A stretch of DNA of 64,000 nt from an uncultured Clostridia bacterium. GTDB lineage: Bacteria > Bacillota > Clostridia > TANB77 > CAG-508. The stretch covers positions 90 to 64,089 of the forward strand of contig CALXCH010000002.1 in assembly GCA_944386735.1 (NCBI GenBank), written 5' to 3'. Shown here piece by piece: positions 3,982-63,945 of this stretch. Each line of letters starts with the position of its first letter. The stretch's first letter is position 1. The notes under the pieces are model-generated. The model saw only the letters and a program-made list of their open reading frames with translations. It searched no databases and was not told the DNA's origin. A program made the position numbers and the translations under genes.

Positions 3982-4136
3982 TTCGTCCTTCCTCTCTTTT
4001 ACTAAATAAATTATAACATATAAATTATTGTTTTTTACATGATTTTATAAATCGTAAGAAAATGTTAAGAATTTTGTTAGATTTTCTTTAAGAACTTTTA
4101 TTTTTTATTTGGTATAAATATTTCAGGGTGATTTAT

Positions 4137-4883
4137 ATGAATAAAAATATTAAAAGAAATAAAAAGAAAAAATTAAATTTAAAATTTATTTTGTTTATTA
4201 TAATTATTATATTATTTGGGATTTATTTATTATACACTTTAAACTATTCCTTAACTACTAATATATTTTTACCTTTGTCTAATTCTAAAAATGACAATTA
4301 TTCTGGTATAGGCCAAGAAACAGTTAATGATAAAGATGGTTATTTTACTACTTTTACAACAATAGATGAAAATAAAAAAACATATAAAGAATTTAAACAA
4401 AACGGTGATAGCTCTTGGGCACAAAATTCTTATTGGGGTGGTACTATGGAAGAAAATGGTTGTGGTATTACTGCTTTATCAATTATTGCTAGTGGTTATG
4501 GAAAAAATGTTACTCCTGAAGATTTAAGAAAAGAATTTTATCCCGTTCTTGATGGGAATGACTTTGGTAGTGTTTTAAGAAATTATTATGGAATAAAAAA
4601 TACAGACTTCTTATATGATACATCATATTTTTCTAATAATTATATTTTGGACTACTTGAAAACTAATAGACCTATTCTTGTTTGTGTTTGGAATAAACCA
4701 CATGATAATAGATGGACTACTGCTTCACATTATTTAGTTCTTCTTGCTTGTGATGATAATAATAAAGTTTATGTTTCTAATCCTAATGGTGGTAAAAATG
4801 ATAGCAAATCTTCTGGTTGGTATGATATAAATGAAGTAACCCCTTTTATTGCAAAAATTCTTTTTATAGAAAGTTATACTTAA
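4137..4883 (+). CDS. membrane-anchored peptidase C39-like (papain-fold) domain protein
   Basis: N-terminal TM anchor. Candidate catalytic Cys in NGCGITALSIIASGYG and His in TASHYLVLL, resembling the Peptidase_C39_2 family. The track ORF starts at GTG 4128; the ATG at 4137 follows AGGGTG. Confidence 0.5.
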   Translation: MNKNIKRNKKKKLNLKFILFIIIIILFGIYLLYTLNYSLTTNIFLPLSNSKNDNYSGIGQETVNDKDGYFTTFTTIDENKKTYKEFKQNGDSSWAQNSYWGGTMEENGCGITALSIIASGYGKNVTPEDLRKEFYPVLDGNDFGSVLRNYYGIKNTDFLYDTSYFSNNYILDYLKTNRPILVCVWNKPHDNRWTTASHYLVLLACDDNNKVYVSNPNGGKNDSKSSGWYDINEVTPFIAKILFIESYT

Positions 4884-4918
4884 AATTTTCTATTAATTTA
4901 ATTCATTATTTAATTTTA

Positions 4919-4953
4919 GAGCTGTTTTTTGACCCCGTCCCAAAAAACAGCTC
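4919..4953. repeat. H2 hairpin repeat, copy 1
   Basis: GAGCTGTTTTTT-GACCCCGTCCC-AAAAAACAGCTC. The same core recurs at 44906-44934 and 61941-61975. It lies between convergent genes. Confidence 0.85.
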
Positions 4954-4995
4954 TTTGTAACTACCATGTCTATTACAAAATGTAACAGATACTTT

Positions 4996-5808
4996 TTAAA
5001 AACCATTTCCTTCTGCAAGTATTTGCATTGCACCTGTAAGTCCAAGTCCTTCTATTTCCAAATAAAATCCAATATATTTGGCGTTTATGGAAATGACAGG
5101 TCTTAAGTACATTACTTCCATGTCTTCCCTACCATTAGTAGAAAAAAGTGTTTTACAATGATCTTTACAACAAATTTGGTTATAAAGTGCACAACCAACA
5201 CCAAATTCTGCATGGTCAGGATAGGTTTGACAAAACGTACTTGCAAGCCAATGTTCCTTTGGCGAAAAGATTTCTTTTTCATTTTCGTCAAAGCCGAGTA
5301 TTATAGCAAAAAATGATGAATTTTGTATAGCCTTTCTTTCTTTTTCATACCTATTGTTAGTAAAACTTTGGGGTGAAAAATCAGTTTTTTGATAAACATA
5401 TTGTTCTTCTTTAATGCGTTCATGAAATTCCTTTTCCCTAGTAAGATTTGCATAATCTCTTACTGTAATTGACCTTGAAAATATAACACCTGGAATAGAA
5501 AAAACTCCAGCCAATTCATTTAAAATTCTAGTAGCATTTATAAAGCCTTTTGCTCCGTAAAATCCAATATGAAAAATTGGGTCAGCAAAGAATGTTAGAT
5601 ATTGTTCCTTCTGTATATTTTCCTTTCCAACAAAAGTTAAATTCAAAGAACCTTCAAGGTCTGATACAAAATATTCAAAATCTTTCCATCCGTTTTCTTC
5701 TTGACTTACAATATGTGTCTTTTCCTTAAAATGTTTAAGTTTAAGAGATGTAACATCTCCTGGCCAAAACTCCAATTTTGAGCCTTTTACTGCACACATT
5801 TCCCACAT
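4996..5808 (-). CDS. hypothetical protein (270 aa), GC-elevated orphan gene
   Basis: Long ORF with an SD (GGAGAAAGGAAC) before the ATG. Visibly higher G+C than its neighbours. Cys-rich C-terminal part (CQTYPDH..CALYNQICCKDHC). I recognise no family. Confidence 0.6.
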   Translation of the reverse strand: MWEMCAVKGSKLEFWPGDVTSLKLKHFKEKTHIVSQEENGWKDFEYFVSDLEGSLNLTFVGKENIQKEQYLTFFADPIFHIGFYGAKGFINATRILNELAGVFSIPGVIFSRSITVRDYANLTREKEFHERIKEEQYVYQKTDFSPQSFTNNRYEKERKAIQNSSFFAIILGFDENEKEIFSPKEHWLASTFCQTYPDHAEFGVGCALYNQICCKDHCKTLFSTNGREDMEVMYLRPVISINAKYIGFYLEIEGLGLTGAMQILAEGNGF

Positions 5809-15635: not shown

Positions 15636-16229
15636 TTATTTTATTAACTTTAGCTTTAGTACATCATTTTTTCCATTTTGTGCTTCTAATATTTTAATTA
15701 CGTTTTCTTTAGTTATTCCTAATTCTTCTTGCATTTTTTCTTGAGTTTCTCTTACAAATAATAAATTGTTATTAATTACAGATTGTGAACTTTTTAATGA
15801 ATTAACAATTTTTCTTATTTTGTTTTGTCCCTTTTTAACTGTTTCTAATTCTGTTTGTATATTGGAAATATTAGCTTTCATTGTTTCCTGTTCATCTTTT
15901 ATTCCTATAATATCAGCTTTTATTGCTTCCTGTTCTTCTTTTATTGTTACAATGTCAGTTTTTATTGCTTCCTGTTCTTCTTTTATTCCTATAATATCAG
16001 CTTTTATTACTTCCTGTTCTTCTTTTATTGTTACAATGTCAGCTTTTATTACTTCCTGTTCTTCCTTTATTGTTACAATATCAGCTTTTATTACTTCCTG
16101 TTCTTCCTTTATTACTGTAATATCAGCTTCCATTTTTTCTTGTCTTTCCTTTATGTCTGTAATATCACTTTTCATGTCTTTAATATCAGAATGCATATCA
16201 GTAAGTAGCTTAATTATTTTTTCTTCCAT
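15636..16229 (-). CDS. coiled-coil protein built from 14-aa tandem repeats
   Basis: About seven copies of KADIVTIKEEQEVI-like units, with a heptad-compatible pattern. SD GGAGAAAAA. Confidence 0.65.
   Translation of the reverse strand: MEEKIIKLLTDMHSDIKDMKSDITDIKERQEKMEADITVIKEEQEVIKADIVTIKEEQEVIKADIVTIKEEQEVIKADIIGIKEEQEAIKTDIVTIKEEQEAIKADIIGIKDEQETMKANISNIQTELETVKKGQNKIRKIVNSLKSSQSVINNNLLFVRETQEKMQEELGITKENVIKILEAQNGKNDVLKLKLIK
15871..16164. repeat. 42-bp tandem repeat, about 7 copies, in frame within the CDS
   Basis: Unit TCAGCTTTTATTRCTTCCTGTTCTTCYTTTATTGTTACAATR starts at 15871, 15913, 15955, 15997, 16039, 16081 and 16123. The outer copies are degenerate. Confidence 0.9.
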
Positions 16230-40352: not shown

Positions 40353-40369
40353 ATTTCCTTCCTTTCTTT

Positions 40370-40440
40370 GTCGCATTGGGGACGTTTCCTTTTGCGACAT
40401 TTTGTACTCATAGGAAATGTCCCTATGTGACATTTTATCG
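40370..40440 (-). repeat. H3 modular repeat, copy A, between spoIIAA and spoIIAB
   Basis: GTCGC-ATT-GGGGACGTTTCC-TTTT-GCGACA-TTTT-GTACTCA-TA-GGAAATGTCCC-TAT-GTGACA-TTTTAT. Confidence 0.9.
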
Positions 40441-44889: not shown

Positions 44890-45744
44890 TCACTTATTAT
44901 TCTTACTGTTTTTTGACCCCGTCCCCAAAAACAGCATTTTATAACTACATTCAAATTCTTCATTTGGCTCTAATTTTAAAATATTTTCTTTTGATTCTAA
45001 CTTTCTATCTGTATTTACTTTATCTGCTGTATTCATCCACGGTTCAATGCAGACGAATGGTGCTCCTATTTTTGCCCACAGTCCTAAATATGGAAATCCT
45101 GTAAAATCAAACTCTAAAATAGTTTTTTCATTTTCTTTTAAATAAACTTTATTAGATTTTATATTTTTCATAATAATAGCATCATTTACAAAACTATCTT
45201 TATTTAAATTGATACAATTATTAGATAAAATATTTGGAGCTTCTTCTTCTAAAACTAAACCATCTTTTAAACTCATGAATTTTATATTATCTTCTTGCTT
45301 TTCAAATTCTATTTTATATTTTCCGCTTGAATAATCACATATAAATGCTGGATGACCACCTAAACCAAATATCATTTCTTTTTTATCTTTATTTACAACT
45401 TTATATTTAGTAGTCACTGTGTTTCTTTCTACTAAATGAGTTACATATAAACTAAATTCATATGGAAACTTTTCTAATGTTTCACTATTACTTTCTAAAA
45501 CATATTCATGTTTATTTTCACTTTTTTCTAATTCCTTAAATTCCATATCTCTTGCAAATCCATGTTGCCTCATATGATAAGCTTTTCCATCTATTATTGT
45601 TTCATCATTTTTCAGTCTTCCTACTATGGGAAACAATATTGGTGCATGTCTATTCCAATACTCTCCTTGATGCAATCTTTCTTTTCCATCAAGTTTTATG
45701 CTTGTTAGTTCTGCTCCTTCTTTTTTACTTTTGATTTCTAACAT
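44890..45744 (-). CDS. aldose 1-epimerase family protein (LacX-like)
   Basis: Family pattern APILFPIVGRL..HGFAR, GGHPAF and EPW. The last 15 codons or so are encoded by H2 repeat DNA. Confidence 0.8.
   Translation of the reverse strand: MLEIKSKKEGAELTSIKLDGKERLHQGEYWNRHAPILFPIVGRLKNDETIIDGKAYHMRQHGFARDMEFKELEKSENKHEYVLESNSETLEKFPYEFSLYVTHLVERNTVTTKYKVVNKDKKEMIFGLGGHPAFICDYSSGKYKIEFEKQEDNIKFMSLKDGLVLEEEAPNILSNNCINLNKDSFVNDAIIMKNIKSNKVYLKENEKTILEFDFTGFPYLGLWAKIGAPFVCIEPWMNTADKVNTDRKLESKENILKLEPNEEFECSYKMLFLGTGSKNSKNNK
44906..44934. repeat. H2 hairpin repeat, copy 2, inside the 3' end of the epimerase ORF
   Basis: CTGTTTTTT-GACCCCGTCCCC-AAAAACAG. It is translated as ..LFLGTGSKN.. in the annotated frame. 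Confidence 0.85.
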
Positions 45745-47390: not shown

Positions 47391-47475
47391 TTTAATTTTC
47401 CTCCTTTATAATTTTATATATTTCCCTTTTATTTTAAGCTTTCGTAAGAAACCCGCCTTTAAGGAGACGGTTATT

Positions 47476-47498
47476 AAACGTCCCCTTTAGACATTATA
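47476..47498 (-). repeat. H3 half-module, copy E, overlapping the ALDH stop codon
   Basis: TAAACGTCCCC-TTT-AGACA-TTA, compared with the consensus GGAAACGTCCCC-ATT-GCGACA-TTTT. Confidence 0.55.
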
Positions 47499-50205: not shown

Positions 50206-50332
50206 ATCTACTCCTCCTTTGTAATTTTTTACTCCATCCAAATTATAACATATCAACCTTTTTTTACAATTAATGACACAAAAACGTAATATAAATGTAA
50301 TAAAAATGTATTATTTTTTCTTATTTGATAGA

Positions 50333-50420
50333 TGTGTCCCAGGTGCGACAAAATGTCGCATCTGGGACGTTTCCTATTGCAACATTTTGTGTTCAAAGGA
50401 AACGTCCCCAACGCGACATT
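50333..50420 (-). repeat. H3 modular repeat, copy B (full length), abutting the pfkA stop codon
   Basis: TGTGTCCC-AGGT-GCGACA-AAAA-TGTCGC-ATCT-GGGACGTTTCC-TATT-GCAACA-TTTT-GTGTTCA-AA-GGAAACGTCCCC-AAC-GCGACA-TTA(stop). Confidence 0.9.
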
Positions 50421-51564
50421 AATCTCCTAAATTTATTCCTATATCTCTTGCTGTTTTTACTAAATCATCATCCATTGTTACTTTTCTTAGATTACTTTCT
50501 GCAGTATTTCCTGATACAGCTCCTATTCTTGTATTTTTTCCTACAACTTCTTCTAATGATACTGAATCAAGTTTTCCATTTTTAATTACTGCAAGTGTTC
50601 CAAATTTTCCTTCTAGTGCTAATTCCATTGCTTTTGTTCCATACTTTGTTGATAATACTCTATCAAATGCTGTTGGTGTTCCTCCTCTTTGCATATAACC
50701 TAAAGTTGTATTCCTTGCTTCTAACCCTGTCATTTCTTGTAATTGTTTTGCAACTATTTGTCCAATTCCTCCAAGTTTTGTATTATCTACGCCTTCACCA
50801 TTATCTCTTGTTCCCATTATTGTAAGTTCTCCGCCTATTGGTTTTGCTCCTTCTGCTACTACTACTACACTAAAGTTCTTTCCTCTTTTCTTTCTGTTTT
50901 CGATTTTACTAGCAACTTTGTTTATATCATATGGTATTTCTGGAATTAAAGCAACATCTGCTCCTCCTGCTATTGCTGATTCTAATGCTATCCAACCAGC
51001 ATATCTTCCCATTACTTCTAATACCATTATTCTATGATGTGTCGCTCCTGTTGTGTGCAATCTATCTAAAGCTTCCATTGCAACTGATACTGCTGTATTA
51101 TATCCAAATGTTATTTCAGTACAAGCAACGTCATTATCTATTGTTTTTGGAACTCCTATTACATTTACTCCTTTTGTTGAAAAGTCTCTTGCTGACTTTT
51201 GTGTTCCATCTCCACCTAAAGTAAATATACAATCAAATCCAAAGTCTTTCATATTTTGAATTGCTTCATCTGATAAATCTTTATATTCTACGCTTCCATC
51301 TTCATTTACTACTTTATAATTAAAAAGGTTAGCATTTGTAGATGAACCGATAATAGAACCACCTTTAGGTAAAATTCCTAATGCTTCTCCTCCTTTTGCT
51401 GTACTTAATAGCTCAAAATCTTTTTTTATTAATCCATTATATCCATCTATAATTCCATAACATTCTACTCCATGGTTTTCTGCTGTTTTTACAATTGCTC
51501 TTATTACTGCATTAAATCCTGATACATCTCCTCCATTTGCAAGTATTCCAACTTTTTTTAACAT
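50419..51564 (-). CDS. pfkA: 6-phosphofructokinase
   Basis: PFK motifs (GGDVSGFNA, TLGGDGT, PKTIDND, EVMGRYAGW, GYMQRGG). The ATG at 51564 follows AGGAGG. Confidence 0.88.
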   Translation of the reverse strand: MLKKVGILANGGDVSGFNAVIRAIVKTAENHGVECYGIIDGYNGLIKKDFELLSTAKGGEALGILPKGGSIIGSSTNANLFNYKVVNEDGSVEYKDLSDEAIQNMKDFGFDCIFTLGGDGTQKSARDFSTKGVNVIGVPKTIDNDVACTEITFGYNTAVSVAMEALDRLHTTGATHHRIMVLEVMGRYAGWIALESAIAGGADVALIPEIPYDINKVASKIENRKKRGKNFSVVVVAEGAKPIGGELTIMGTRDNGEGVDNTKLGGIGQIVAKQLQEMTGLEARNTTLGYMQRGGTPTAFDRVLSTKYGTKAMELALEGKFGTLAVIKNGKLDSVSLEEVVGKNTRIGAVSGNTAESNLRKVTMDDDLVKTARDIGINLGD

Positions 51565-51700
51565 ACGAATTCCTCCTATCAAAATCTCATTTTGTTTTTT
51601 CCATATTTTTCTTTCAATATTATTATATCAATAATTTATTTTTTTACAACAACTTTTTATATTTTTAAATAATTTATTCAATGATATTAACACTAATTTA

Positions 51701-52777
51701 CTATTTTACATATTCATTTAATGACTTTACTCTATATTTTAATTCATCCATTTCATTTGTTGGAACATATCCTGACTTAGCGTTTATAACATCTGGTATT
51801 CTATTTACTACTGTTGCGCATGTTAATTCTACTGTTGCTGGTTTATCTACTACTATTGTTGTTTCTGGTTCTCCTTCTATTGTCCACTTATTTCTATCAA
51901 ATTCATCTTCATCATATACTTTTCCTATACACTCTGTTTCTAATATTATTCCTTCTTTAGTCTTCGTTGTAACAACTGCACTCATTCCTGTAGCATCACC
52001 TTTTTTTATTGTCATATTTAATGTACTTGAGAAAATATCTCTTTTAGCTACTTGTGGCACACATTCTTGAGTTTGTGATTCTACCGTTAATCCTAATTTT
52101 TCACAAAGCCAACCATTTACATTCCACATATATGATGGTTGATACTTACCGCTTTCTATTACTTTTTGTCTTTCTTCATCACTTATTCTATCTAAACTTG
52201 CAACTTCCTTATCAAATTCTTCTAATGTTAAACCTGCTCCGTGTGCTTTTGCTAATGCTATTCCATAATCTTCTACATTATAGCTTGAACTTCCTTTTAT
52301 TTTCGTTATTTTATGAGTTGAACCTCCAATCGCAGATATTAATTCTCCCCAATATATATCTTGATATCCTGTTCCTGTAATTGTACAATTATTCTCTTTT
52401 GCTAATTTATCTATTGCAGCAGTAACCCCAGGATTTGAATTTGCTGGATAAAATGCTTCTTCACATGTTGTTATTGCATTTAATCCTAATTTTGCGCATA
52501 ACATTAAAGCATCTTTAACATCTTCTATTAAACTCATTGTTGTTACTATTACAACATCTGGTCTTGTTTCATCAAGCATTTTTTCTGCTTCTTCTAACCC
52601 AACAATTTTAACACCTTTTTCTTCACAACCCATTACTTCACCTATATCTTTTCCTATAACATCAGGATTTACATCAATTGCTCCTACTATTTCTCCTCCT
52701 TTTTCATATACATATCTCATTGTATACACACTCATTTTTCCAGTTCCATATTGAACTACACGAACTTTTCTATCCAT
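51701..52777 (-). CDS. DapB-like NAD(P)-dependent oxidoreductase (amine dehydrogenase / 2,4-diaminopentanoate dehydrogenase-like family)
   Basis: N-terminal Rossmann motif VRVVQYGTGKMS and about 358 aa. Resembles the family that includes 2,4-diaminopentanoate dehydrogenase. Assignment made by eye only. Confidence 0.45.
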   Translation of the reverse strand: MDRKVRVVQYGTGKMSVYTMRYVYEKGGEIVGAIDVNPDVIGKDIGEVMGCEEKGVKIVGLEEAEKMLDETRPDVVIVTTMSLIEDVKDALMLCAKLGLNAITTCEEAFYPANSNPGVTAAIDKLAKENNCTITGTGYQDIYWGELISAIGGSTHKITKIKGSSSYNVEDYGIALAKAHGAGLTLEEFDKEVASLDRISDEERQKVIESGKYQPSYMWNVNGWLCEKLGLTVESQTQECVPQVAKRDIFSSTLNMTIKKGDATGMSAVVTTKTKEGIILETECIGKVYDEDEFDRNKWTIEGEPETTIVVDKPATVELTCATVVNRIPDVINAKSGYVPTNEMDELKYRVKSLNEYVK

Positions 52778-53020: not shown

Positions 53021-53067
53021 GGGACGTTTCTATTTACAACATTTTTGCTGTAATAAAGAAACATCCC
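53021..53067 (-). repeat. H3 repeat, degenerate copy D, 7 nt after the PBP stop codon
   Basis: GGGACGTTTCT-ATTTACAACATTTTTGCTGTAATAA-AGAAACATCCC. It has the same stem and loop layout as the core of copies A-C. Confidence 0.7.
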
Positions 53068-53073: not shown

Positions 53074-55104
53074 TTATTCTAATAATGTTCTTATCTTTTT
53101 AATCAAGTAATGACTTCCTCCACTACTATTATCTTGTACATTTTCTACCATACTAATAATTAGCATGTCTGTACCGTTTTGTCTATCTATTGTATAACAA
53201 TCAAACCATCCTAGTGTTCCACTTTCTGTATCTTCACTAGATGTCTTAAGTTCTGCTGTTCCTGTTTTTCCAGCAATTGTTGTACCTGCAATCTTCATAT
53301 CATTTGCAGTACCTTCTGGATTTTCAACAACTTGTATTAAATCATTTTCAATAGTATCTGCCGCTTCTTTTGTAAAAGCATTTTCTATTAAGATTTCTCC
53401 ATTTTTACTCTCATCATATTCAATTCTTGGTTTAATCATATTACCATCATTTGCAAATGCTGAATATATTGCTGCCATATGTATTGGATTTACCAAAATA
53501 TCACCTTGGCCATATCCACTATCTGCAAGTTTTGTTTCTCCTGAAATTTCCGTTCCATTATTACTTGCATATTGAGATTTTGAAAGCGTAAGTGGAAAGT
53601 CTAAGCTTTGGTTAAATCCTATTTTATCTAAACTATTTGTAAAAGTATCTGCACCTATTTTTAAAGCAGATTGTGCAAAATAAATATTATCTGAATGTAT
53701 AATTCCATTTAATAAATTCTTTGCTCCTGAATAGCCTGTTAAAGTTGTTACTTTATAATTTCCCCAAGAACTATCTTTTTGCCAGCTTGTTCCTGTGTAT
53801 CCATAATCTTCGTTTGGATCAATTTTTCCTGTTGTTAATCCTATTGCTCCTGTTACTGGTTTAAACGTAGAACCCGGACAATATTTTTGTGTAAATCTAT
53901 TATATAGTGGTCTTGCTTCATCATTATTTAATTCATTCCATTTATCAGTAGTTAACCCTACAACAAAGTCATTTGAATCATATGATGGTGTACTTACTAA
54001 TGCTAATAATTCTCCTGTTTGAGGTTCCATTATAACAAAAAATCCTTTATCATCCTTCATTTGGTCATATACTTGTTTTTGTAAAGTACTATCTATTGTT
54101 AATTTTACATCAGTTCCATCTTTTTTATCTTGTGTTGCAATAGTTGCAACTCTATTTTCGTTTCCATCTACTATGTAAATATCTGTTCCATCTATTCCTC
54201 TTAAAGTATCTTCATATGCAAGCTCTAATCCAGATTTTCCAATTAAACTGTTTGTTGTATATCCTTTTCCTTCATTTGCTTCTAATTCTTCACTACTAAT
54301 TGGCTGTACATAGCCTATTAAATGCGCAGCTTCTTGTCCTAAAGAATATACCCTTCCATCTTCTTTATTTATCATAACACCTGGAATTGCAAGTAACTGA
54401 TTTTTTAATTCTGTATTACTATCTACTATTTTTTTAACAGGCACAAATGTATCATCTTTAACATATGATGCACTTAAAGCTTTATTAATATAATCTACAG
54501 ATACTCCTGTTAATTCTGATATTTTTTGTATATTTTCATCTTTATTTTCGCCTAGTTTTCCTGGTACTATTCCAACTGATGCAGTATTTCCATCTTCTGC
54601 TAACACTATACCATTTCTATCTAATATACTTCCTCTTTTTGCTTTTAATGTTGATACTCTTACTTTATCGTTATCACCTAATTGTGGAAATATCATACTT
54701 GATGACCATTTTAATTTTAATTCTCCCTCTTCTTTTACAACATTTGCTGTATTATCAAATTCAACATCCCCTGCTGATGTATACATTTTTTCATGGTAAC
54801 TTACATTATAGCCATTATCAGCTTTTACAATATCTTTTATTTCTATTTGAATATCACTTGCGTCTATTCCTTCATAAATGTTTTGATTTCTTGTTACAAA
54901 ATCTTCTTTACTTGTATTCATACTTGCGACTTTAGAATACATTTCTTCATAACTTTTGTTATTAATTAAAGTAAAATAATCATTAAGTAAACCTTTTGCT
55001 TCTTCTTGTTCTTTGTTTCCCATAATTATAACAGCTGCTACCACAGCAATTACTATGACTATTACTGCTACAATTACTCCGATTAATACTTTTTTATTTT
55101 TCAT
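53074..55104 (-). CDS. class B penicillin-binding protein with an NTF2-like MecA_N domain (PBP2a / PbpC-like)
   Basis: The N-terminal domain parallels the PBP2a N-terminus (..EEGELKLKWSSSMIFP..KRGSILDRNG). Transpeptidase motifs STFK, SDN and KTGT are present. Confidence 0.85.
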   Translation of the reverse strand: MKNKKVLIGVIVAVIVIVIAVVAAVIIMGNKEQEEAKGLLNDYFTLINNKSYEEMYSKVASMNTSKEDFVTRNQNIYEGIDASDIQIEIKDIVKADNGYNVSYHEKMYTSAGDVEFDNTANVVKEEGELKLKWSSSMIFPQLGDNDKVRVSTLKAKRGSILDRNGIVLAEDGNTASVGIVPGKLGENKDENIQKISELTGVSVDYINKALSASYVKDDTFVPVKKIVDSNTELKNQLLAIPGVMINKEDGRVYSLGQEAAHLIGYVQPISSEELEANEGKGYTTNSLIGKSGLELAYEDTLRGIDGTDIYIVDGNENRVATIATQDKKDGTDVKLTIDSTLQKQVYDQMKDDKGFFVIMEPQTGELLALVSTPSYDSNDFVVGLTTDKWNELNNDEARPLYNRFTQKYCPGSTFKPVTGAIGLTTGKIDPNEDYGYTGTSWQKDSSWGNYKVTTLTGYSGAKNLLNGIIHSDNIYFAQSALKIGADTFTNSLDKIGFNQSLDFPLTLSKSQYASNNGTEISGETKLADSGYGQGDILVNPIHMAAIYSAFANDGNMIKPRIEYDESKNGEILIENAFTKEAADTIENDLIQVVENPEGTANDMKIAGTTIAGKTGTAELKTSSEDTESGTLGWFDCYTIDRQNGTDMLIISMVENVQDNSSGGSHYLIKKIRTLLE

Positions 55105-55212
55105 TTAAGGTTTCCCCCTTTTTATTAAAATATATAACTATAATATCATATTTAAGAACTATTTACATCTTTTTTCTACTTTTTTATTATTTTTTACAAT
55201 CAAAAATATATT

Positions 55213-55392
55213 TTATCCACCACTTGCAAGTATTTTCATCATTAATACTGGCCAAATAAAGAAAAAGAAAAATGCCATAACACACGTTAAAAAAGCAACT
55301 ACTGCAACTACTATAAAAATAATTATCAAAATTTTTCTACTTTTTTTACTTTCCTCAATATCTTTTTCTAATTCTTCTTCCCATTTATCCAT
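55213..55392 (-). CDS. small membrane protein (59 aa), not in the ORF track
   Basis: My translation: MDKWEEELEKDIEESKKSRKILIIIFIVVAVVAFLTCVMAFFFFFIWPVLMMKILASGG*. SD AGGTGAG lies 4 nt before the ATG. Confidence 0.5.
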   Translation of the reverse strand: MDKWEEELEKDIEESKKSRKILIIIFIVVAVVAFLTCVMAFFFFFIWPVLMMKILASGG

Positions 55393-55422
55393 TTTCTCAC
55401 CTAAAAATTTAATTAATTTACT

Positions 55423-56808
55423 TTAGCAACCCATACCTTCTATATTTGTTGCAACTAACTCTCCCTTTTCTAATTCATTTTTATCAAGAGTTATATAAAT
55501 TGTAAATTTTTCTAATTGCTTTAGTTGTTCCTCTGTATTTCCTGTTACTCCTAATATTTGTGTATTGTTATTTACCGTAACTTCTAAATCCAAACTTTCT
55601 GCTTCATTATAATCATTAGTATAATACCAGTCTGTTGTCTTACCTTTTAATATATAATTATTTCCGTTTTTTACTATGTCTTCTAAGTCAAAATTTATAT
55701 CTTCACTACTTAATAATTCTTTTTTTAATTCATCTCCATGTATATTTCTTATAACATAGACTTTTGAATTTTCTGTAAATGCAATTTCTCCTTGTCTTTT
55801 ATATACATTATCAAAATCTAACTTATCATTTACTTTAATATTGCTTATATCAAAACTTTCTTCTGTTCTTTTATTAATTACTTGTAAATTATCCGTTAGA
55901 ATAACTTTTAATGTTTCTCCTTTATCTGCTTTTAATGTATAAATATTTCCATCTATATTTGTTACAAGTGTTCCCCATACTGATTTTACTGTGTTTTCTT
56001 CTCTTTCTATTCTTTCTTGTTCTTCTTTATTAAAATTATCTTTCTTTTCTTGTTTTTTACTTTCTATATAATTTTCAAAATCTTCTTTACTTCCATTAAA
56101 CACATTTAAATCTATAAACTTTTCTTCTCCATTATAGCCATCTAACCTGCCTCGTCCCGTATATTGCCAAAATTTCCAATCTCTATTTTCTATATTAGGT
56201 TTTGTTATTATATCTCTAATCCATATATCATAATCTTGGAATTCACCATCTATATAATAATCATAAAATTCCATAGTAGTATATATTATTGGCTTTACTC
56301 TATATGTATCTTCTAATTCTTCTAGCATTACTTGTAACTGTTCTGTTACCCAGGTCTTACTTGGCTTTGCTTTTTTATAAAAACTATAAAATTCCACATC
56401 TATTATTGGAAGCATTATGCTATCATCATTTTCTATATTTCCAACAGCTTCTATATAATTTTTAGCTTGTTCCTCTCCTGTACTTTCAAAACTAAAGAAA
56501 TGATAACATCCAAGTAACATATCCATAGTCTTTAGTTTTTCATAATTTTTATCAAAGTAGCTATCTTTACTGTTACTACCTTCTGTAGCTTTTATAAACG
56601 CAAAACTAATTCCTTGTTCTTTTATTTTATCCCAATCTACTTCTCCTTGATATTCTGATACATCTACTCCTCTTACTTCATATTTTTCCGCTTCTAACTT
56701 TGTTGGAATAATGTATCCATTTAATAACAAAAGAGTAATTAGTACTAATATTAGAACAATTATTAATACTGTTAGTATAATATTTTTACTTTTCTTACTT
56801 AACTCCAT
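55423..56808 (-). CDS. membrane-anchored GH25 muramidase (lysozyme) with an extra C-terminal domain
   Basis: N-terminal TM and GH25 motifs (GVDVSEYQGEVDW, FAFIKATEG). The ATG at 56808 follows AGGTGA. The track ORF starts at GTG 56817. Confidence 0.8.
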   Translation of the reverse strand: MELSKKSKNIILTVLIIVLILVLITLLLLNGYIIPTKLEAEKYEVRGVDVSEYQGEVDWDKIKEQGISFAFIKATEGSNSKDSYFDKNYEKLKTMDMLLGCYHFFSFESTGEEQAKNYIEAVGNIENDDSIMLPIIDVEFYSFYKKAKPSKTWVTEQLQVMLEELEDTYRVKPIIYTTMEFYDYYIDGEFQDYDIWIRDIITKPNIENRDWKFWQYTGRGRLDGYNGEEKFIDLNVFNGSKEDFENYIESKKQEKKDNFNKEEQERIEREENTVKSVWGTLVTNIDGNIYTLKADKGETLKVILTDNLQVINKRTEESFDISNIKVNDKLDFDNVYKRQGEIAFTENSKVYVIRNIHGDELKKELLSSEDINFDLEDIVKNGNNYILKGKTTDWYYTNDYNEAESLDLEVTVNNNTQILGVTGNTEEQLKQLEKFTIYITLDKNELEKGELVATNIEGMGC

Positions 56809-56817
56809 AAACTTCAC

Positions 56818-57198
56818 CTAACTTATCAATAACAAGAAAAATGCACCTAAAGAAATTCCCAATGTTTCTAAAATAAATATAATAGTAAAACATAAATTTA
56901 ATTTTTTACTTTTATATAAATTCACAAATAATAATACAAAAAATGGTATAAACACAAAACCATGCATTGCTCCGCCTGTAAGATGTCCAAAACCTACATC
57001 AAATATTGCATGCTTTCTTGCATAAATTTCTCCAGCTAAATTTCCTAAAAATCCCCCTACAAATATTCCAATAATCATAAGCACAAAATAAGCTATTATC
57101 CAAAAAGCTTTATTTCCACCTGCTTTTGATTTTTCTACAACTTGTACTTCTATTACTATTGTGAATGCAAATATTATTACATATAAAATTCCAAACAT
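56818..57198 (-). CDS. small polytopic membrane protein (126 aa)
   Basis: Four hydrophobic helices. SD AGGGAG. No family recognised. Confidence 0.55.
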   Translation of the reverse strand: MFGILYVIIFAFTIVIEVQVVEKSKAGGNKAFWIIAYFVLMIIGIFVGGFLGNLAGEIYARKHAIFDVGFGHLTGGAMHGFVFIPFFVLLFVNLYKSKKLNLCFTIIFILETLGISLGAFFLLLIS

Positions 57199-57217
57199 GA
57201 TATTCTCCCTTTATAAA

Positions 57218-57592
57218 CTAATAAATTAATAAAATTCCTGCACTATTTAAAAATAATATTAATAAAACATACACTATAAATCTTTTTCTACTAATCTCTT
57301 TCTTATTATATTTGTCTATTAATTCTGTATATACTAACATAAGTATTGCTTCCATAAACACAATTATTATAGGTACAAGTATTATTAAAACAAGTTCTCC
57401 TTGTCCTTGTTCTAAACTTCTATTATTAGAAAATCCCCAATAAACCAAACCTATTTGCATAGCAAATATTAGTACAAACAATGTTATTGTTATTAATATT
57501 CTAGTTGTTTTCCTTTTAAATGAACTTAAATTTCCATATGCTACATATATTACTAGTACTAATATAATTAAAAAGAATATTATACCTATCAT
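57218..57592 (-). CDS. small polytopic membrane protein (124 aa)
   Basis: Four hydrophobic helices. SD AGGTGA. No family recognised. Confidence 0.55.
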   Translation of the reverse strand: MIGIIFFLIILVLVIYVAYGNLSSFKRKTTRILITITLFVLIFAMQIGLVYWGFSNNRSLEQGQGELVLIILVPIIIVFMEAILMLVYTELIDKYNKKEISRKRFIVYVLLILFLNSAGILLIY

Positions 57593-57624
57593 CTACTTCA
57601 CCTAACTATTTTTATAAACTATTC

Positions 57625-59811
57625 TTAGTCGCTTGATTTTCCTGCACCTATCACATTTCCATTTGTTGCATCTACATAGATATATAATGATGTTAATGCA
57701 TCATTTTTATCTCCTAATCTTACACACCATACTGGTTGTCCTTTAAATAAATTATTTATATTTGAATCTTTTGCCCATTCATCTTCCCAATAATAAATTC
57801 TATGTATATCATCTAAAGAATAAAGTAGTTCTGCTGCTATTTCATAATTACCATTTTCATCACTAAAAATTTCCTTTGCTGAAAAATCAGATGTCCAAGG
57901 TTGATACTGGTATTTTTCTTTTTTAGCTTCTTCATCTGCAATGGCTGCTGCTTGTTCTTTTGTAATTCTAGCTGTCTTATCTACATTGGAATTACTCGCT
58001 GAACTAGAATTACTAATAGCACTATTATTTAAATTACTTGTGTTTACAACATTACCAGTAACATTGTTATTTACACTACCATAAGAAACATTTCCTGTTA
58101 TATTATCCATATTTCTATAAATACAATTTGTATTAATTGCTTTACTTGCTGCAAATACATTTGCTAAATAACTATCTTGTCTTTTATCTCCTGTAAAATA
58201 ATATGTAAGTCCGCCTATTCTTGTTTCTATATTTTCAACATTATATTTAGAAATCATTAATATAATATCTGCTTTCTCAAAAATATCACTTGGAATTTCT
58301 TCTTCTAGCTCTATATTATATCTTTTTAACATTTCATTTAATTTTTCTTCATTTTGTATTTTAATTCCATACACTCCATCTTCATATTGTCTAAAATCTG
58401 AGTTATTATTTTCAAATACTTCTCTTGGTATTTCATTTGTTACCTTATATTCTTTACTATCTCCCATATGATAGCAATTAACACCATCATTGTTTTTCTT
58501 TTCTTGCATCATTTTACTTAAAGTCTCTTTATCACTTAAATTTTGTTTTACAACTTGACCACCGTTATCATTTCTAAAAATAACATTATTAGCTTTTTCT
58601 TCATATGCAATAACATAGTTTTTACTTATAGTATCATAATCAAGCTCTATATAATTTTCATTTTGTTCAATATTACTGATTTCTTCTACTGAAACAAAAG
58701 GACCTTCTCCTTTGCTATCAAAACCTTTTATTAATTCATTTAAAATATCTGTATAATCTTTACTTTCTTTAGTAAACACATAATAATTGTCTTGTCCTTT
58801 TTCCTTATATACAATTCTATCTGGTATTTCAAAATATCTTACTGAATTTGTAGGCACTTCTTCTTGTGGTTTTATTCTCGTAAATATAAATGTTCCAACA
58901 CATAATACAATTAAAAGTGTTGTTATCCCAATTAATGCTTTATATTCTTTAAATTTATCAGATAATTTAATCATTTTTATTCTTCTCTCCATATTCTTTT
59001 TTCCATCTGTTACACAAAGTAACTTAACAGGCTCTTTTTCTTCTTGTGAAATTGGAAGTAATCTTACTAAAGTTTTTGCATAATTTTTTTCTTCATTTTT
59101 TTGTATTTTATTTAAAACCATTTCATCTGCTTTTAATTCCATATCTTGTCTTACTTGCTTAAAGCAATACCATAAAATAGGATTAAACCAATGAACAGCT
59201 GTAATGACTATTAACAATTTATTTAATACCAAATCATGTCTTTTGTAATGTGCTAGTTCATGTAAAAATATATATCTTAAACTTTCTTCATCTTTTTCTA
59301 GCACTTCGTCTGTTACTAATATCTTTGTGGAAAATAGACCATATATACAAGGAACTTTTTTATAATATTGTTTTATTAGTTTTATTTTCTTTTCTACACC
59401 CATTTGTTTCTTACAATTTTCTAATATATCTAATATCTTTTTATCTTTTACTTCTTCTTTTCCTATTTTCTTTTTCATTACAATGCTTGTAATAATATAA
59501 TAAAGAAAAATAATGCACATTACAGCAAGCCAAATATAGATAAAAATCTTACCACTTTCATTTGCAATCAAGTTGTTTTTTTCAAGTTCTAATTTATCTA
59601 TTCCAGAACTTACAAAAAACTCATGTGAATTTCTAGACTCAATTGTAAATCTAAATGGCACAAGTAAGCTTACTAAAACAAGTAACCACATAGCAAATTT
59701 CCATGTTGGTGATATTTTCTTATCAAATGTTTTTCTTAATATTAATACAATTATTCCTAATATACTTCCTATTATTGATAAATATAAAATATTATAAAAT
59801 ACTTGATACAT
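57625..59811 (-). CDS. BlaR1/MecR1-type M56 peptidase signal transducer with a non-PBP C-terminal ectodomain
   Basis: M56 zinc motif HELAHYKRHD and TM helices. The C-terminal ~400 aa show no SxxK..KTG triad by eye and end in a PepSY-like segment. Confidence 0.75.
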   Translation of the reverse strand: MYQVFYNILYLSIIGSILGIIVLILRKTFDKKISPTWKFAMWLLVLVSLLVPFRFTIESRNSHEFFVSSGIDKLELEKNNLIANESGKIFIYIWLAVMCIIFLYYIITSIVMKKKIGKEEVKDKKILDILENCKKQMGVEKKIKLIKQYYKKVPCIYGLFSTKILVTDEVLEKDEESLRYIFLHELAHYKRHDLVLNKLLIVITAVHWFNPILWYCFKQVRQDMELKADEMVLNKIQKNEEKNYAKTLVRLLPISQEEKEPVKLLCVTDGKKNMERRIKMIKLSDKFKEYKALIGITTLLIVLCVGTFIFTRIKPQEEVPTNSVRYFEIPDRIVYKEKGQDNYYVFTKESKDYTDILNELIKGFDSKGEGPFVSVEEISNIEQNENYIELDYDTISKNYVIAYEEKANNVIFRNDNGGQVVKQNLSDKETLSKMMQEKKNNDGVNCYHMGDSKEYKVTNEIPREVFENNNSDFRQYEDGVYGIKIQNEEKLNEMLKRYNIELEEEIPSDIFEKADIILMISKYNVENIETRIGGLTYYFTGDKRQDSYLANVFAASKAINTNCIYRNMDNITGNVSYGSVNNNVTGNVVNTSNLNNSAISNSSSASNSNVDKTARITKEQAAAIADEEAKKEKYQYQPWTSDFSAKEIFSDENGNYEIAAELLYSLDDIHRIYYWEDEWAKDSNINNLFKGQPVWCVRLGDKNDALTSLYIYVDATNGNVIGAGKSSD

Positions 59812-59814
59812 AGG

Positions 59815-60192
59815 CTAGTCCTCACTTTCTATTAAATCAAGTAAGTCCTGCAAGTTTTTTTTAGATATTTTCTTTTCTTCTACAAAATTTAATAATAATT
59901 TATTAGTACTTCCATTGTATAGTTTCTTTAAAAAAGATTCATTCGCTTTTTTTAAATATTCATCCTCACTTACAATTGCTCTATATGTATGTTCTTTTTT
60001 CTTATTTGTAATTGATTTAACACTTTCTTTTTCTATTAATCTGTATAATAATGTTTTTATTGTGCTTTTATTTTTCTTTCCATTCTTACTTAAAATCTCT
60101 ACTATTTCATTTAATGTAAGTTCTCTATTTTCCCAAAGTACTTTCATTATTTCTAATTCTGCATCTGTTATTTCATATTTTTTAGTTATCAT
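59815..60192 (-). CDS. BlaI/MecI/CopY-family transcriptional repressor
   Basis: 125 aa winged helix (TDAELEIMKVLW..., TIKTLLYRL). Immediately upstream of the M56 gene. Confidence 0.88.
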   Translation of the reverse strand: MITKKYEITDAELEIMKVLWENRELTLNEIVEILSKNGKKNKSTIKTLLYRLIEKESVKSITNKKKEHTYRAIVSEDEYLKKANESFLKKLYNGSTNKLLLNFVEEKKISKKNLQDLLDLIESED

Positions 60193-60496: not shown

Positions 60497-60710
60497 AATG
60501 TTAACCTTTCTCTCTTTTTAACATTTATTATATAAAACTAAGTTGTAAGAGGCTTTTCCCTCTACTATTTAGTAGAAAAAAGGAATTATGTACAATTAGT
60601 ACTCTTATAGTTTATCACTCATTTAAATAATTTTCAACACAAAACAAAAACTTTTAACATAACAAACTTCTTATGTTCCACTTTTCTCCCCTTGTATTTT
60701 CCTTAAAAGG

Positions 60711-60800
60711 TATGTCCCAAATGCGACAAAATGTGTTCATGGGGACGTTTCCTTTGAACACAAAATGTCGCAAAAGGAAACGTCCCCATTGCGACATTTT
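60711..60800 (-). repeat. H3 modular repeat, copy C (full length, inverted core), abutting the stop of the DUF2974 gene
   Basis: TATGTCCC-AAAT-GCGACA-AAAT-GTGTTCA-T-GGGGACGTTTCC-TT-TGAACAC-AAAA-TGTCGC-AAAA-GGAAACGTCCCC-ATT-GCGACA-TT-TTA(stop). Confidence 0.9.
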
Positions 60801-61866
60801 ACTTTCTAGTTATATTATCTCTTCCAACCTTAAGTAATGTCTTAAGTGTTTTTGTCATCATGCTTTTAGTTTCTTGACTTAAATTATTGTAAGTTTTAAT
60901 CATTGTTGCTGCATTTTTAAACCATTTGCTACTTAGTTCATTTACCGTCTTTGCTTCTGTAGCATTTAAAATGTCAAAAAAAGCATTAATAAATTCTTCC
61001 CTTTGTTCTGGTGATACTTCTTTTAGCCAATTAGTAATTGTATTATCTATAAAATCACTTGAATTTGTTTGTTTAGCTCTTACAAATTTATCTCCCAAAA
61101 CTTGCCATGAATATAAGTCATGTTGCATTATTCCTGTTTCAGTACTTTTTACAATAGTTGTTTTTTCCTTATGTCTTAATAACCTTCCTATAATTGAAGT
61201 TTGTGGAATATAAGTATGTACTTTATCTAATATTTCATTATATTCTTTACTTTCTATTACTTTATCTGAAAAACCAGGTCCATCATTATTATATACTTCT
61301 ATAATCTGTTTTTTTGTTTCTTCGTTTGAAAAAGCTGATGCATATACTGCTAAATTTCCTCCTTTTGAATGCCCTCCTACACGCAACTTATTTTTATATT
61401 TTTTAGCCACATCATTTAGGTATTTTACACTATCTATCTGAGATGGAACAAGCTCACTAAAGCTCATATTAAAATCTTCTTTCCATCCTATTATTGTATT
61501 ATCTGTTCCTCTATATGATACATAAATTGTATCATCTGGCAAAATTATTGTTATTGCTGCAAATTGTTTTTCTGCTTCTGGCTCTATTTTATTTACAAAT
61601 TTAGTTAGTTTGCAATTTCCGAACCTAATACTTTTTGCAAGTACAGGGTATAAGTCTATATCTTCTGCTTGAAGAGTTCTTCCTGTTGTACCAAGCTCCT
61701 TTGTTCTTGTATATGCTTCTTTTATTGTTATTTCTTCATTTTCATTCATAATACCATCAAATGGGAAATATGAAAGTCTAGATAAAATTAGATTATCTAT
61801 TTCATTAAAATCTACCTTTTTTAAACTTATATCTCTCCAATTCATATAATCAAATATATTTGCCAT
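60799..61866 (-). CDS. Mbeg1-like / DUF2974 alpha-beta hydrolase (lipase-like)
   Basis: YRGTDNTIIGWKEDF and the nucleophile elbow GGHSKGGNLA. Confidence 0.75.
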   Translation of the reverse strand: MANIFDYMNWRDISLKKVDFNEIDNLILSRLSYFPFDGIMNENEEITIKEAYTRTKELGTTGRTLQAEDIDLYPVLAKSIRFGNCKLTKFVNKIEPEAEKQFAAITIILPDDTIYVSYRGTDNTIIGWKEDFNMSFSELVPSQIDSVKYLNDVAKKYKNKLRVGGHSKGGNLAVYASAFSNEETKKQIIEVYNNDGPGFSDKVIESKEYNEILDKVHTYIPQTSIIGRLLRHKEKTTIVKSTETGIMQHDLYSWQVLGDKFVRAKQTNSSDFIDNTITNWLKEVSPEQREEFINAFFDILNATEAKTVNELSSKWFKNAATMIKTYNNLSQETKSMMTKTLKTLLKVGRDNITRK

Positions 61867-61940: not shown

Positions 61941-61975
61941 AAGTTGTTTTTTGACCCCGTCCCAAAAAACAACTT
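61941..61975. repeat. H2 hairpin repeat, copy 3, 1 nt after the stop of the hydrolase gene
   Basis: AAGTTGTTTTTT-GACCCCGTCCC-AAAAAACAACTT. Confidence 0.85.
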
Positions 61976-61976: not shown

Positions 61977-62858
61977 TTATATTTTTTTTATAAAATTAAC
62001 TATATCTTTTGCTACAATTTCTTCTTTTTCATGATATCCATGATTTGCACCATCTACATAATCAATATCTTTTTTAGGATTTGTAATTACATTACTTACT
62101 ATTGTTACTAATTCCTCTGCTTTTTGTAATATCATTTCATTATCATTTCCCCATCTCATAAATAGAGGAACTTTTATATTATTTAATTTTTCTAAGTCGT
62201 TATCTCGTCCATATTTTGCAAAATCTATGTCTTGATTATCCCTTGCATAGCGTAAAAATGTCTTTACACTAATTGGATGAATAAATGCTCCTCTTGGCAT
62301 AAGGTCTTTAGGATTACTTTCTTCTTTTTCTTCTGCTAATTTTAAATATTCTTCATAGTTTTCCCCTAAATAAATTTTTAATGCCATTGGGATATCTATT
62401 AATGATAATAATATTACTCCTTTTATAGACTCTAATATATCTTTTTCCTCTTCTTCTAACAATTCATTATAAGTATATACAATTTTTGTACAACCTAGGC
62501 TATGACCTTGTAAGTATATATCTGTATATCCTAATTCTTTTAATTTTAATATCGCTCCTACTATATCTTCATAAGCTTCTAGTACATCTTCATAAGCAGT
62601 TCCACCAAGTTGCTTTTCCGCATTTCCATTAATATTTTTTCTTATATATTTTACAATTTCACTTCCTCTATTATTAAAACAAAAATAATCAATTCCATTT
62701 TCATTTGCTGATTTTGCAATTATATCGTCTCTTTTCTTAAAACAATTACTTGTCATTCCATGTATTGATAATATTATTTTATTTGTTTTTTCTTCTCCTT
62801 TATATAAAATACCATTTAATTCTATACCATCTGTTGCTAGAAAATCTATTTTCTCCAT
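61977..62858 (-). CDS. alpha/beta hydrolase
   Basis: Nucleophile elbow LQGHSLGC, and a C-terminal His in GANHGY. The ATG at 62858 follows AAGGAG. Confidence 0.75.
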   Translation of the reverse strand: MEKIDFLATDGIELNGILYKGEEKTNKIILSIHGMTSNCFKKRDDIIAKSANENGIDYFCFNNRGSEIVKYIRKNINGNAEKQLGGTAYEDVLEAYEDIVGAILKLKELGYTDIYLQGHSLGCTKIVYTYNELLEEEEKDILESIKGVILLSLIDIPMALKIYLGENYEEYLKLAEEKEESNPKDLMPRGAFIHPISVKTFLRYARDNQDIDFAKYGRDNDLEKLNNIKVPLFMRWGNDNEMILQKAEELVTIVSNVITNPKKDIDYVDGANHGYHEKEEIVAKDIVNFIKKI

Positions 62859-63573: not shown

Positions 63574-63599
63574 CGAAAAAAAATTATTAAAAAGGAAAT

Positions 63600-63945
63600 A
63601 AGTAAATCTATAAGCCGGGTTCTGTCTTTTAAAATAGTCATTTATCTAGGATAGATATCACTATCTACCTCAAGCCACGCAGATAAGAAGGCGCCGAGCA
63701 GGCTTAATCTTCTCATTTAGGTGTTGCTCCAGATGGGGTTTACACTGACCCATTATGTCACCATAATGGCGGTGAGCTCTTACCTCACCTTTTCACCCTT
63801 ACCTAATTTATAGGCGGTTATTTTCTGTTGCACTTTCCTTAAGGTCACCCTCACTAGACGTTATCTAGCATCTTTGCTCTATGGAGCCCGGACTTTCCTC
63901 TCGTAATTCCTTTCGGAATTTACCAGCGACTATTTAACTTACTTA
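63600..63945 (-). ncRNA. rnpB: RNase P RNA (M1-type ribozyme)
   Basis: The minus strand contains the universally conserved GAGGAAAGTCCGGGCTCCATAGAGCA and ACAGAACCCGGCTTA blocks. The termini AAGTAAGT / ATTTACTT can form P1. A TATAAT lies just upstream. Ends are approximate (+/- 5 nt). Confidence 0.93.

Follow-up and report, generated by a model that had tools for sequence, protein, structure and literature searches.

Described Systems and the Repeats of This Study

RAYT-like genes flanked by inverted repeats other than GTAG REPs have been described under the names TIRtron and TIRYT (Di Nocera et al. 2013, PMC3733652); some of these flanking repeats carry the consensus GGGGWSAS, some are double palindromes, and some belong to dispersed families (PMC3733652). 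TIRYT corresponds to subclass 2.1 of TnpAY1 (Quentin et al. 2018, PMC6006769), whose proteins carry the motifs NHVH or NH[YF]H, W[EQ] or FQ, and Y[IV]HLNP or YIELNP, together with a C-terminal helix-turn-helix (HTH) (PMC6006769). The repeats considered here lie in a stretch of 64,000 nucleotides from an uncultured Clostridia bacterium (GenBank assembly GCA_944386735.1, contig CALXCH010000002.1, positions 90 to 64,089 of the forward strand), henceforth the window, in which a family of multi-hairpin elements stands directly after stop codons, for instance after that of a phosphofructokinase (PFK) gene. These elements are probably non-autonomous repeats of the REP/BIME kind and the apparent cognates of a RAYT-like Y1 (HUH) transposase-like protein of the TIRYT/TnpAY1 subclass 2.1 type.

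Two other kinds of short palindromic repeat are relevant to the comparison. The published CGTC-REPs consist of an unpaired CGTC head, a stem of 8–9 bp starting from AT, a loop of 4–5 nt, and a CCA tail; no transposase is associated with them, and Firmicutes are not among the groups in which they were reported (Di Nocera et al. 2013). The REPs of E. coli that lie no more than 15 nt from a stop codon have been linked to ribosome stalling and lower translation, according to work cited in a passage of PMC12306157.

Anatomy of the Copies in the Window

The elements are built around an 11-nt inverted pair, S = GGGACGTTTCC and S' = GGAAACGTCCC, and around a stem module designated x, of which the arm at the stop side is designated x'. 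When up to two mismatches are allowed, GGGACGTTTCC has 11 matches in the window as against 1.56 expected, a number that none of 100 shuffles reaches, and 10 of the 11 fall within five loci, A to E. The initial annotation, which had reported a repeat family at five loci from the sequence alone, was therefore right about its existence, and the arms lie where it had placed them. Three of the loci are full or near-full copies (A, B, and C), one is degenerate (D), and one is a fragment (E); all five are situated 0–22 nt 3' of the stop codon of a minus-strand gene, and the modules GCGACA/TGTCGC and GTGTTCA/TGAACAC occur in the window almost only within them.

Copy B (50330-50418, minus strand) is a full element after the PFK stop, with perfect 11-nt arms at 50364-50374 and 50398-50408 around a loop of 23 nt, and its GCGACA (50413-50418) directly adjoins the stop, which reads TTA (50419-50421) on the forward strand. 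In the sense direction, the PFK stop TAA (50421-50419) is followed by x' TGTCGCGTTG, S GGGACGTTTCC (50408-50398), an inner segment (50397-50375), S' GGAAACGTCCC (50374-50364), the hairpin GCGACA-TTTT-GTCGC (50363-50341), and the terminal motif GGGACACATCT (50340-50330). Copy C (60708-60798, minus) is likewise a full element, located after the stop (60799-60801) of a gene for 355 amino acids, with perfect 11-nt arms at 60742-60752 and 60776-60786, a loop of 23 nt, the outer architecture of copy B, and the terminal motif GGGACATACCT (60718-60708). On the forward strand these terminal motifs read AGATGTGTCCC at 50330 and AGGTATGTCCC at 60708.

The remaining copies are less complete. Copy A (40369-40432, minus) is truncated to x'-S(GGGACATTTCC)-inner segment-S'-x, with arms at 40379-40389 and 40413-40423 that differ by one mismatch and with neither the 3' half of the second hairpin nor the terminal motif, and it lies between the stop of a spoIIAA-like gene (40455) and the ribosome-binding site and start of a spoIIAB-like gene. 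Copy D (53021-53067, minus) is a degenerate S/S' hairpin only, GGGATGTTTCT and AGAAACGTCCC around a 25-nt loop, which begins 6 nt after the stop (53074) of a PBP2a-family gene and is followed in sense by UUUU. Copy E (47474-47493, minus) is a 5' fragment, or half unit with a single arm, in which an x'-like TGTCTAAA and then an S-like GGGGACGTTTAA directly adjoin the stop of an aldehyde dehydrogenase gene (47494-47496).

Three details of the initial annotation have to be refined. The extents it gave were too short for B and C, which reach the terminal motif, and a second, related hairpin family had escaped it. The inner S-loop-S' part of copy C runs opposite to that of A and B (90–92% complementary, as against 85% direct identity between A and B), so the proposed common polarity is true of the outer architecture only, that is, of a stop-proximal x' and a distal GGGACA end, and does not extend to the loop and inner segment of C.

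Both strands of copies B and C fold very stably, the sense RNA reaching −46.1 kcal/mol (z −7.6) for B and −41.0 kcal/mol (z −7.3) for C, and the fold energies of the S-type loci and of the second, D2-type hairpin family described below range from −22 to −46 kcal/mol (z −3 to −7.6). In total, the 64 kb contain five loci of the S type and three of the D2 type, each intergenic or at the end of an open reading frame (ORF). The ends of the element are not inverted repeats of each other, no target duplication is obvious, and the distances from the ends to the hairpin feet are about 21 nt and 11 nt; in IS608 these distances are about 19 and 10 nt.

Distribution and Layout in Other Genomes

Other genomes and contigs, from which loci are designated by L-numbers and Y1 homologues by P-numbers, were scanned for the pattern S-N18-28-S' with one genome per species. 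At least 110 loci were obtained where chance would give about 1 match, as roughly estimated from the size of the collection. The matches listed include Clostridia metagenome-assembled genomes (MAGs), Olsenella and another actinobacterial MAG, Planctomycetales, Acidobacteriota, Steroidobacteraceae, Acidimicrobiales, Flexilinea, and others, and many copies are present per genome, the most among the matches listed being 15 loci in MAG E12__bin58. The window as a whole has matching contigs in ENA metagenome assemblies, which come from an uncultured Clostridia population.

Once the low-GC copies are oriented, 31 sense-oriented copies display the layout [stop]-x'-S-hairpin1-S'-hairpin2-GGGACACATCT, and one-hairpin short forms (S-hairpin-GGGACAC) also occur. 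Within one genome x is identical in both hairpins and in all copies, and other genomes carry another x; the modules found in individual MAGs include TTGGACA, TTACCAC, TTGGGAA, GCGAAA, GCGACA, TGTCAC, and GGTTCA, among others. At the same time, the loops alternate between TTTT and AAAA from copy to copy. This concerted within-genome sequence points to ongoing copying from few sources, instead of conservation of each copy independently in its place.

Searches of viral contigs and plasmids returned no copies, and a full-text literature search for the S and S' strings found unrelated primers only. The annotation had been unable to name an RNA family, and indeed no repeat from the window or from 18 loci matched Rfam at the gathering score; at E ≤ 10, copy B drew only generic hairpin matches of the miRNA-precursor kind. 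In a separate observation, S/S' hairpins flanked by A-runs and T-runs are present at L005, L040, L051, L052, and L069 (MAG AS21ysBPME_299) and at L003 (Paenibacillus taichungensis); these resemble bidirectional intrinsic terminators, and the tag pair may have been co-opted for termination in some genomes.

The Associated Y1 Gene

A hidden Markov model (HMM) built from RAYT/TIRYT sequences (PMC3733652, Additional file 5) was compared with all six-frame ORFs of the gathered loci, and it matched L106 at 2389-3162 (E = 4e-38) and L093 (E = 1.6e-8). The L106 protein of 257 amino acids matches Pfam Y1_Tnp (E = 1e-13), has weak HTH_8/HTH_28 matches in a C-terminal HTH at 226-257, and contains the motifs NHVH (NNHVHMV), FQ (LFQNRF), and YIHKNP, in agreement with the protein motifs of TIRYT and subclass 2.1. 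Its best BLAST matches are the TIRYTs gbm2474, pca3049, and dau2153 at 32–37% identity; its identity to the E. coli RAYT is 21%, it scores below the NCBIfam REP_Tyr_transpos cut-off (63.8 vs 80 bits), and a sequence search of the PDB with the Y1 protein gave no match.

Two inverted copies of the repeat flank the L106 gene with their GGGACA ends toward it, and inverted copies similarly stand on both sides of Y1 at L195-L197, L198-L199, L200-L201, and L202-L203. The copies flanking each Y1 gene bear the x module of that genome; for instance, a flanking copy at L198 carries the window's own stem module, TGTCGCA (TGTCGCATCT GGGACAGATGTCT), and in the Olsenella MAG (L093) an S-type copy with that genome's module lies no more than 25 nt after the Y1 stop. 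The gene-proximal ends at Y1 are GGGACAGATCT on the left of L106, AGATGTGTCCC on the right of L106 and of L202, GGGACACATCT on the left of L202, and GGGACAGATGTCT on the left of L198, and they show GGGAC[AG]. Moreover, the terminal motifs GGGGACAC and GGGGACAG fit the consensus GGGGWSAS of TIRYT flanks, the full form of which is present in dispersed copies such as L001; the terminal TGGGACACATCT of copy B has three Gs, a one-base departure from GGGG[AT][CG]A[CG].

There are 407 homologues of the L106 protein at E ≤ 1e-10, many of them on contigs of about 1 kb, as would be expected if the repeats break assemblies. On long contigs from other lineages, the homologues P0045, P0047, P0085, and P0103 occur in the order MiaB-like radical SAM gene (mtaB-like), small ORF, Y1, and radA; at each, an S-type element closely follows the small ORF's stop, and a second, inverted element adjoins radA. 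In all, a copy of the repeat stands beside a Y1 gene at seven loci from two phyla, and six Clostridia loci combine the conserved gene order with inverted copies on both sides of the gene. The Y1 gene is thus low in copy number and vertically kept, with synteny in five lineages and Y1 proteins 53–60% identical to that of L106. The initial annotation had considered the family unlike REP/BIME and impossible to assign, and had suggested a genome-wide search for a cognate IS200/IS605 TnpA or RAYT gene; a search of the gathered loci has led to a transposase-like gene in related genomes, which is a class 2 Y1 gene and not of the IS200/IS605 TnpA type. The assignment has changed accordingly, since inverted copies around a single-copy Y1 HUH gene, as seen in related genomes, are the feature that defines REP/RAYT-type systems, and the terminal motif matches the GGGGWSAS of TIRYT-flanking repeats (PMC3733652; PMC6006769).

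Two side observations concern the surroundings of the Y1 gene. Every Y1 gene examined is separated from its upstream repeat by a stretch that contains the conserved palindrome AAAAGTATAGCA-N12-16-TGCTATACTTTTT (L106 2255-2300; L195-L202), which could be an operator, a 5' untranslated region (UTR) structure, or the terminator of the preceding gene. Besides, the radA start codon adjoins or falls within the x module of the inverted copy (L106 3247-3253; L198, L200, and L202), with no obvious ribosome-binding site between that module and the radA start at these four loci.

Placement Relative to Stop Codons

Reading frames were walked upstream of each oriented copy, which left 32 informative copies. 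A long ORF, of 70 to more than 900 codons, ends at the S end in 23 of them, and at none of the 32 does a long ORF come in from the GGGACA side. The stop lies between 14 nt inside S and 31 nt before it, with a mode of 9–10 nt before S, which places the stop directly against the x' arm. In a sample chosen only for the presence of a PFK orthologue (36 non-redundant loci, 173 kb), GGGAC[GA] within 40 nt after the stops of long ORFs occurred 9 times in sense and once in antisense. The stop-proximal, co-oriented placement noted by the initial annotation consequently holds outside the window as well. In a minority of copies, the S end adjoins the start codon of a divergent gene (radA; also at L006 and L075).

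Filled and Empty Sites at the PFK Gene End

The end of the PFK gene was compared among 80 orthologues with flanks (77–93% identity). The closest orthologues with readable flanks (89–91% identity) have nothing after the stop codon, so that copy B represents a lineage-specific gain exactly at TAA. Other GGGAC elements begin at the very same PFK stop, namely TAA followed by GGGACGTTC in L128 and TAG followed by GGACGTTCC in L137, and loop-type hairpins stand at the PFK stop in L167 and its relatives; the GGGAC elements at this stop are repeated, independent gains at one gene end. Contigs of the same species (98.6–100% identity; L111-L114) carry identical copies B and D and therefore give no information on presence/absence polymorphism. 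Hence, the comparison of orthologous junctions that the initial annotation had put forward yields an empty site among orthologues and no polymorphism within the species. Separately, all 127 differences between the window and L112, of the same species, are confined to 51130-52631, a 1.5-kb tract that covers the 5' portion of PFK together with the adjacent dehydrogenase gene and suggests a recombined segment.

A Second Hairpin Family and Other Features of the Window

The second, related hairpin family, D2, is present at three window sites with the stem CTGTTTTTTG and, on the minus strand, the loop GGGACGGGGTC, and it has the GGGACG tag and the after-stop placement in common with the main family. 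The hairpin at 61941-61975 (minus; stem AGTTGTTTTTTG, loop GGGACGGGGTC in sense) begins 1–2 nt after the stop at 61977-61979 and is directly followed by the ribosome-binding site of the next gene, and the hairpin at 4918-4954, with its loop on the minus strand, sits between convergent genes (4128-4883 plus, 4996-5808 minus). The third is found at 44906-44935 (minus; loop GGGACGGGGTC). The minus-strand ORF 44890-45744 translates across this last hairpin (C-terminus ...KMLFLGTGSKNSKNNK) and ends 14 nt beyond it; the original end of the ORF may have been lengthened by the hairpin or exchanged for it. D2-like hairpins with GGGACGnnnnC in the loop are also present in related gut Clostridia (L119, L141, L150, and L167).

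The genes adjoining the window copies encode a spoIIAA-like antagonist, a spoIIAB-like anti-sigma F factor, an aldehyde dehydrogenase, a phosphofructokinase, and a PBP2a-family transpeptidase, as the initial annotation had named them, or nearly so. A transpeptidase of the PBP2a/PBP4(5) family lies near a BlaI/MecI-family repressor (59815-60192) and a Peptidase_M56 (BlaR1-like) gene within 53074-60192; in this genome of an uncultured gut Clostridia bacterium, they make up a cluster of the beta-lactam sensing and resistance type. Elsewhere in the window, about 10 tandem units of 42 nt at 15792-16211, detected as seven overlapping 168-nt copies at 42-nt spacing, lie within ORF 15636-16229 and probably encode a 14-residue protein repeat, and a bacterial class A RNase P RNA is located at 63595-63945 on the minus strand (298.9 bits).

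Comparison with Known Systems

With the TIRtrons, the system shares a low-copy, RAYT-like Y1 gene whose product has NHVH, FQ, Y-IH-NP, and a C-terminal HTH, inverted flanks with GGGG[AT][CG]A[CG], and flanking repeats that are also dispersed as dimers or clusters, some of the published flanks being double palindromes. The likeness is to the consensus given in the text of the TIRtron paper. Published TIRtron families are moderately abundant and mainly known from Proteobacteria, Acidobacteria, and Planctomycetes, whereas the present repeats abound in uncultured gut and rumen Clostridia, form clear hairpin units, are polar to stop codons, and possess a second conserved tag (GGGACGTTTCC) common to several phyla. 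Given the fit to GGGGWSAS and to the motifs of subclass 2.1, the best place for the family is among the TIRYT-associated repeats within the wider REP/RAYT kind.

Canonical REP/BIME/REPIN elements (E. coli yafM type; subclasses 2.2, 2.4, and 2.5) are similar in being short, species-specific, extragenic palindromes whose units alternate in orientation and form longer hairpins, in having a single domesticated, flanked Y1 gene (REPtron), and in lying after genes, with many copies no more than 15 nt from the stop; they differ in that the tags here are GGGAC(G/A), and the Y1 protein has the low identity and the sub-cut-off score given above. CGTC-REP families 1–4 were considered, as S' contains CGTC, and ruled out on stem, loop, and tail. 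Like them, the present repeats have CGTC or TGTC directly 5' of the hairpins (GGAAA-CGTC-CC, GATG-TGTC-CC), a 3-nt, tail-like ACA after the stem, head-to-head dimers, and positions downstream of genes; unlike them, they have GTC paired with GAC, stems of about 10 bp or longer that start with CC, and an associated Y1 gene, and the strings GGGAC and GTCCC are absent from the CGTC-REP paper and its supplements (Di Nocera et al. 2013). Integron attC sites, CRISPR repeats (which the initial annotation had also discounted), CsrA GGA sites, Spo0A boxes, uptake sequences, and Tn3-type or other terminal inverted repeats were ruled out on anatomy and context, namely on ends that are not mutually inverted, an x that varies between genomes, and housekeeping neighbours, without formal tests.

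Proposed Mechanism and Alternative Explanations

Each copy is composed of hairpin units in which a genome-specific x (here GCGACA, with the second module GTGTTCA) is flanked by GGGAC(G/A) tags, S = GGGACGTTTCC and the terminal GGGACACATCT serving as the conserved tags. By analogy with E. coli TnpA-REP and IS200/IS605 TnpA, the Y1 enzyme would recognise the folded hairpin and the GGGAC tag on single-stranded DNA, cut it, and rejoin it, a process that could yield new copies, dimers, inversions, and homogenised units; an x common to all copies of one genome and unlike that of other genomes, together with flipping loops and inner segments, would follow from such copying and inversion. Copies persist almost only directly after stops, with the S end on the gene side, and would there be co-transcribed as very stable hairpins of the 3' UTR or of intercistronic RNA. 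Retention there may be due to directed insertion, or such hairpins may be useful or least harmful in a 3' UTR; by further analogy with the E. coli REPs, they may shield the upstream mRNA or influence how translation terminates. Among the roles offered by the initial annotation, the non-autonomous mobile element has become the best supported.

A number of observations weigh against the assignment to a TIRYT-type Y1 enzyme and against the mechanism built on it. The window itself contains no Y1 gene (best E = 0.38 with the same HMM), just as the initial annotation had seen no transposase there, and all-against-all clustering of the ORFs of 110 repeat loci revealed no protein that recurrently adjoins the repeats, which is expected with one Y1 gene per genome and is not positive evidence. 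Aligned copies, 31 in number, have no conserved 5' GT[AG]G head, their feet being GGGAC(G/A)/GTCCC, so that they do not qualify as canonical REPs of subclasses 2.2/2.4/2.5/2.7/2.8. For subclass 2.1, automatic and manual searches found no REP-like sequences (Quentin et al. 2018, PMC6006769), and the TIRYT assignment therefore extends published knowledge instead of repeating it. Mismatches in the stems amount to 41 G:U and 41 A:C on the sense strand, with hence no sign of selection on the RNA fold. The sense strand of the window copies is also the leading strand: the minus strand is G-rich and presumably leading, which confounds the direction of genes with that of replication in the window. Only two loci are informative, L044 and L048, whose genes are apparently encoded on the lagging strand, and at both it is the gene that the element follows. 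To our knowledge, moreover, no enzymology exists for subclass 2.1.

In a rival explanation, of lower but appreciable probability, the repeats are primarily cis-acting RNAs of the host, located in 3' UTRs or between cistrons, and the link to Y1 is incidental. S:S' pairing and the alternative GUCCC-x...x'-GGGAC helix would then form a switch read by the terminating ribosome and would govern the decay of the mRNA, the termination of translation, or how strongly the downstream gene is expressed. The strict sense-oriented placement 0–20 nt after stops, the presence of mutually exclusive helices in the sequence, the copies inside operons that require read-through (A between spoIIAA and spoIIAB; D2 at 61941-61975), and the precedent of E. 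coli REPs all agree with such a role; however, the sense strand has no G:U over A:C asymmetry, an RNA fold alone does not call for a single stem sequence in the two hairpins of an element and throughout a genome, the loops and inner segments are turned round from one copy to another, no Rfam family is matched, and the closest orthologues lack the element. The operon copies, in turn, disfavour intrinsic or factor-dependent transcription terminators with a coincidentally shared sequence, an unlikely solution despite the location at gene 3' ends, the very stable hairpins, the UUUU after copy D, the A-/T-run-flanked hairpins in MAG AS21ysBPME_299 and Paenibacillus, and the D2 hairpin at 4918-4954 between convergent genes. 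Both copy A and the D2 hairpin at 61941-61975 are within operons, with a ribosome-binding site immediately downstream; no U-tract follows either helix of A, B, or C, in keeping with the doubts of the initial annotation about a classical terminator; and terminators would be accompanied neither by genome-wide concerted evolution nor by inverted pairs around a transposase-like gene.

Mobility of another type, in which the repeats are miniature derivatives of IS200/IS605 elements (PATE/MITE) whose movement depends on a multi-copy, IS-type TnpA acting in trans, perhaps together with TnpB, is still less probable. As in PATEs, the elements are hairpin-based, with two subterminal hairpins of the same sequence, no terminal inverted repeats, no obvious target duplication, and a presumed Y1 HUH chemistry on single-stranded DNA, the distances from the ends to the hairpin feet resemble those of IS608, and the window copies all have one orientation relative to the replication strand. 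This explanation is nevertheless rejected because the linked gene belongs to class 2 (Y...NP and a C-terminal HTH, without the Y...Q of IS200) and is single-copy and syntenic; in addition, no tnpB or IS200-type ORF is present in 203 loci, and a single-hairpin short form exists. Least probable of all, and very improbable, is a set of double-stranded DNA binding sites for a regulator or nucleoid protein, made up of palindromic x-N4-x' operators and GGGAC boxes: the x-N3-4-x' palindromes do resemble dimer operators, and the Y1 protein has an HTH, but the repeats are at gene ends and not at promoters, their placement is polar relative to the upstream gene, and x differs between close relatives while all copies change together.

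Significance

Under the preferred reading, of REP/BIME-like repeats paired with a TIRYT-type Y1 enzyme, the common TIRYT proteins of unknown function gain a clear and abundant repeat partner in uncultured Clostridia of the gut and rumen and in one or more actinobacterial lineages. Among the Y1 subclasses, 2.1 ranks second in size, and the tag GGGACGTTTCC/GGGACAC is conserved from phylum to phylum; with this tag and its genome-specific stem, the repeat is a simple substrate for biochemical work, and its polar position at stop codons, which recurs independently at one gene end, makes targeted insertion and 3'-UTR selection testable against each other. In practical terms, such repeats break metagenome assemblies and can mislead ORF calling at gene ends. 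It may be proposed, tentatively and at rather long odds, that the repeats are the long-missing hairpin partners of subclass 2.1, placed in a transcription-polar manner at stop codons through insertion into DNA exposed beyond the terminating ribosome or through domestication as regulators in the 3' UTR; if this is true, stop-codon-directed, transcription-polar targeting would be a mode undescribed for HUH elements.

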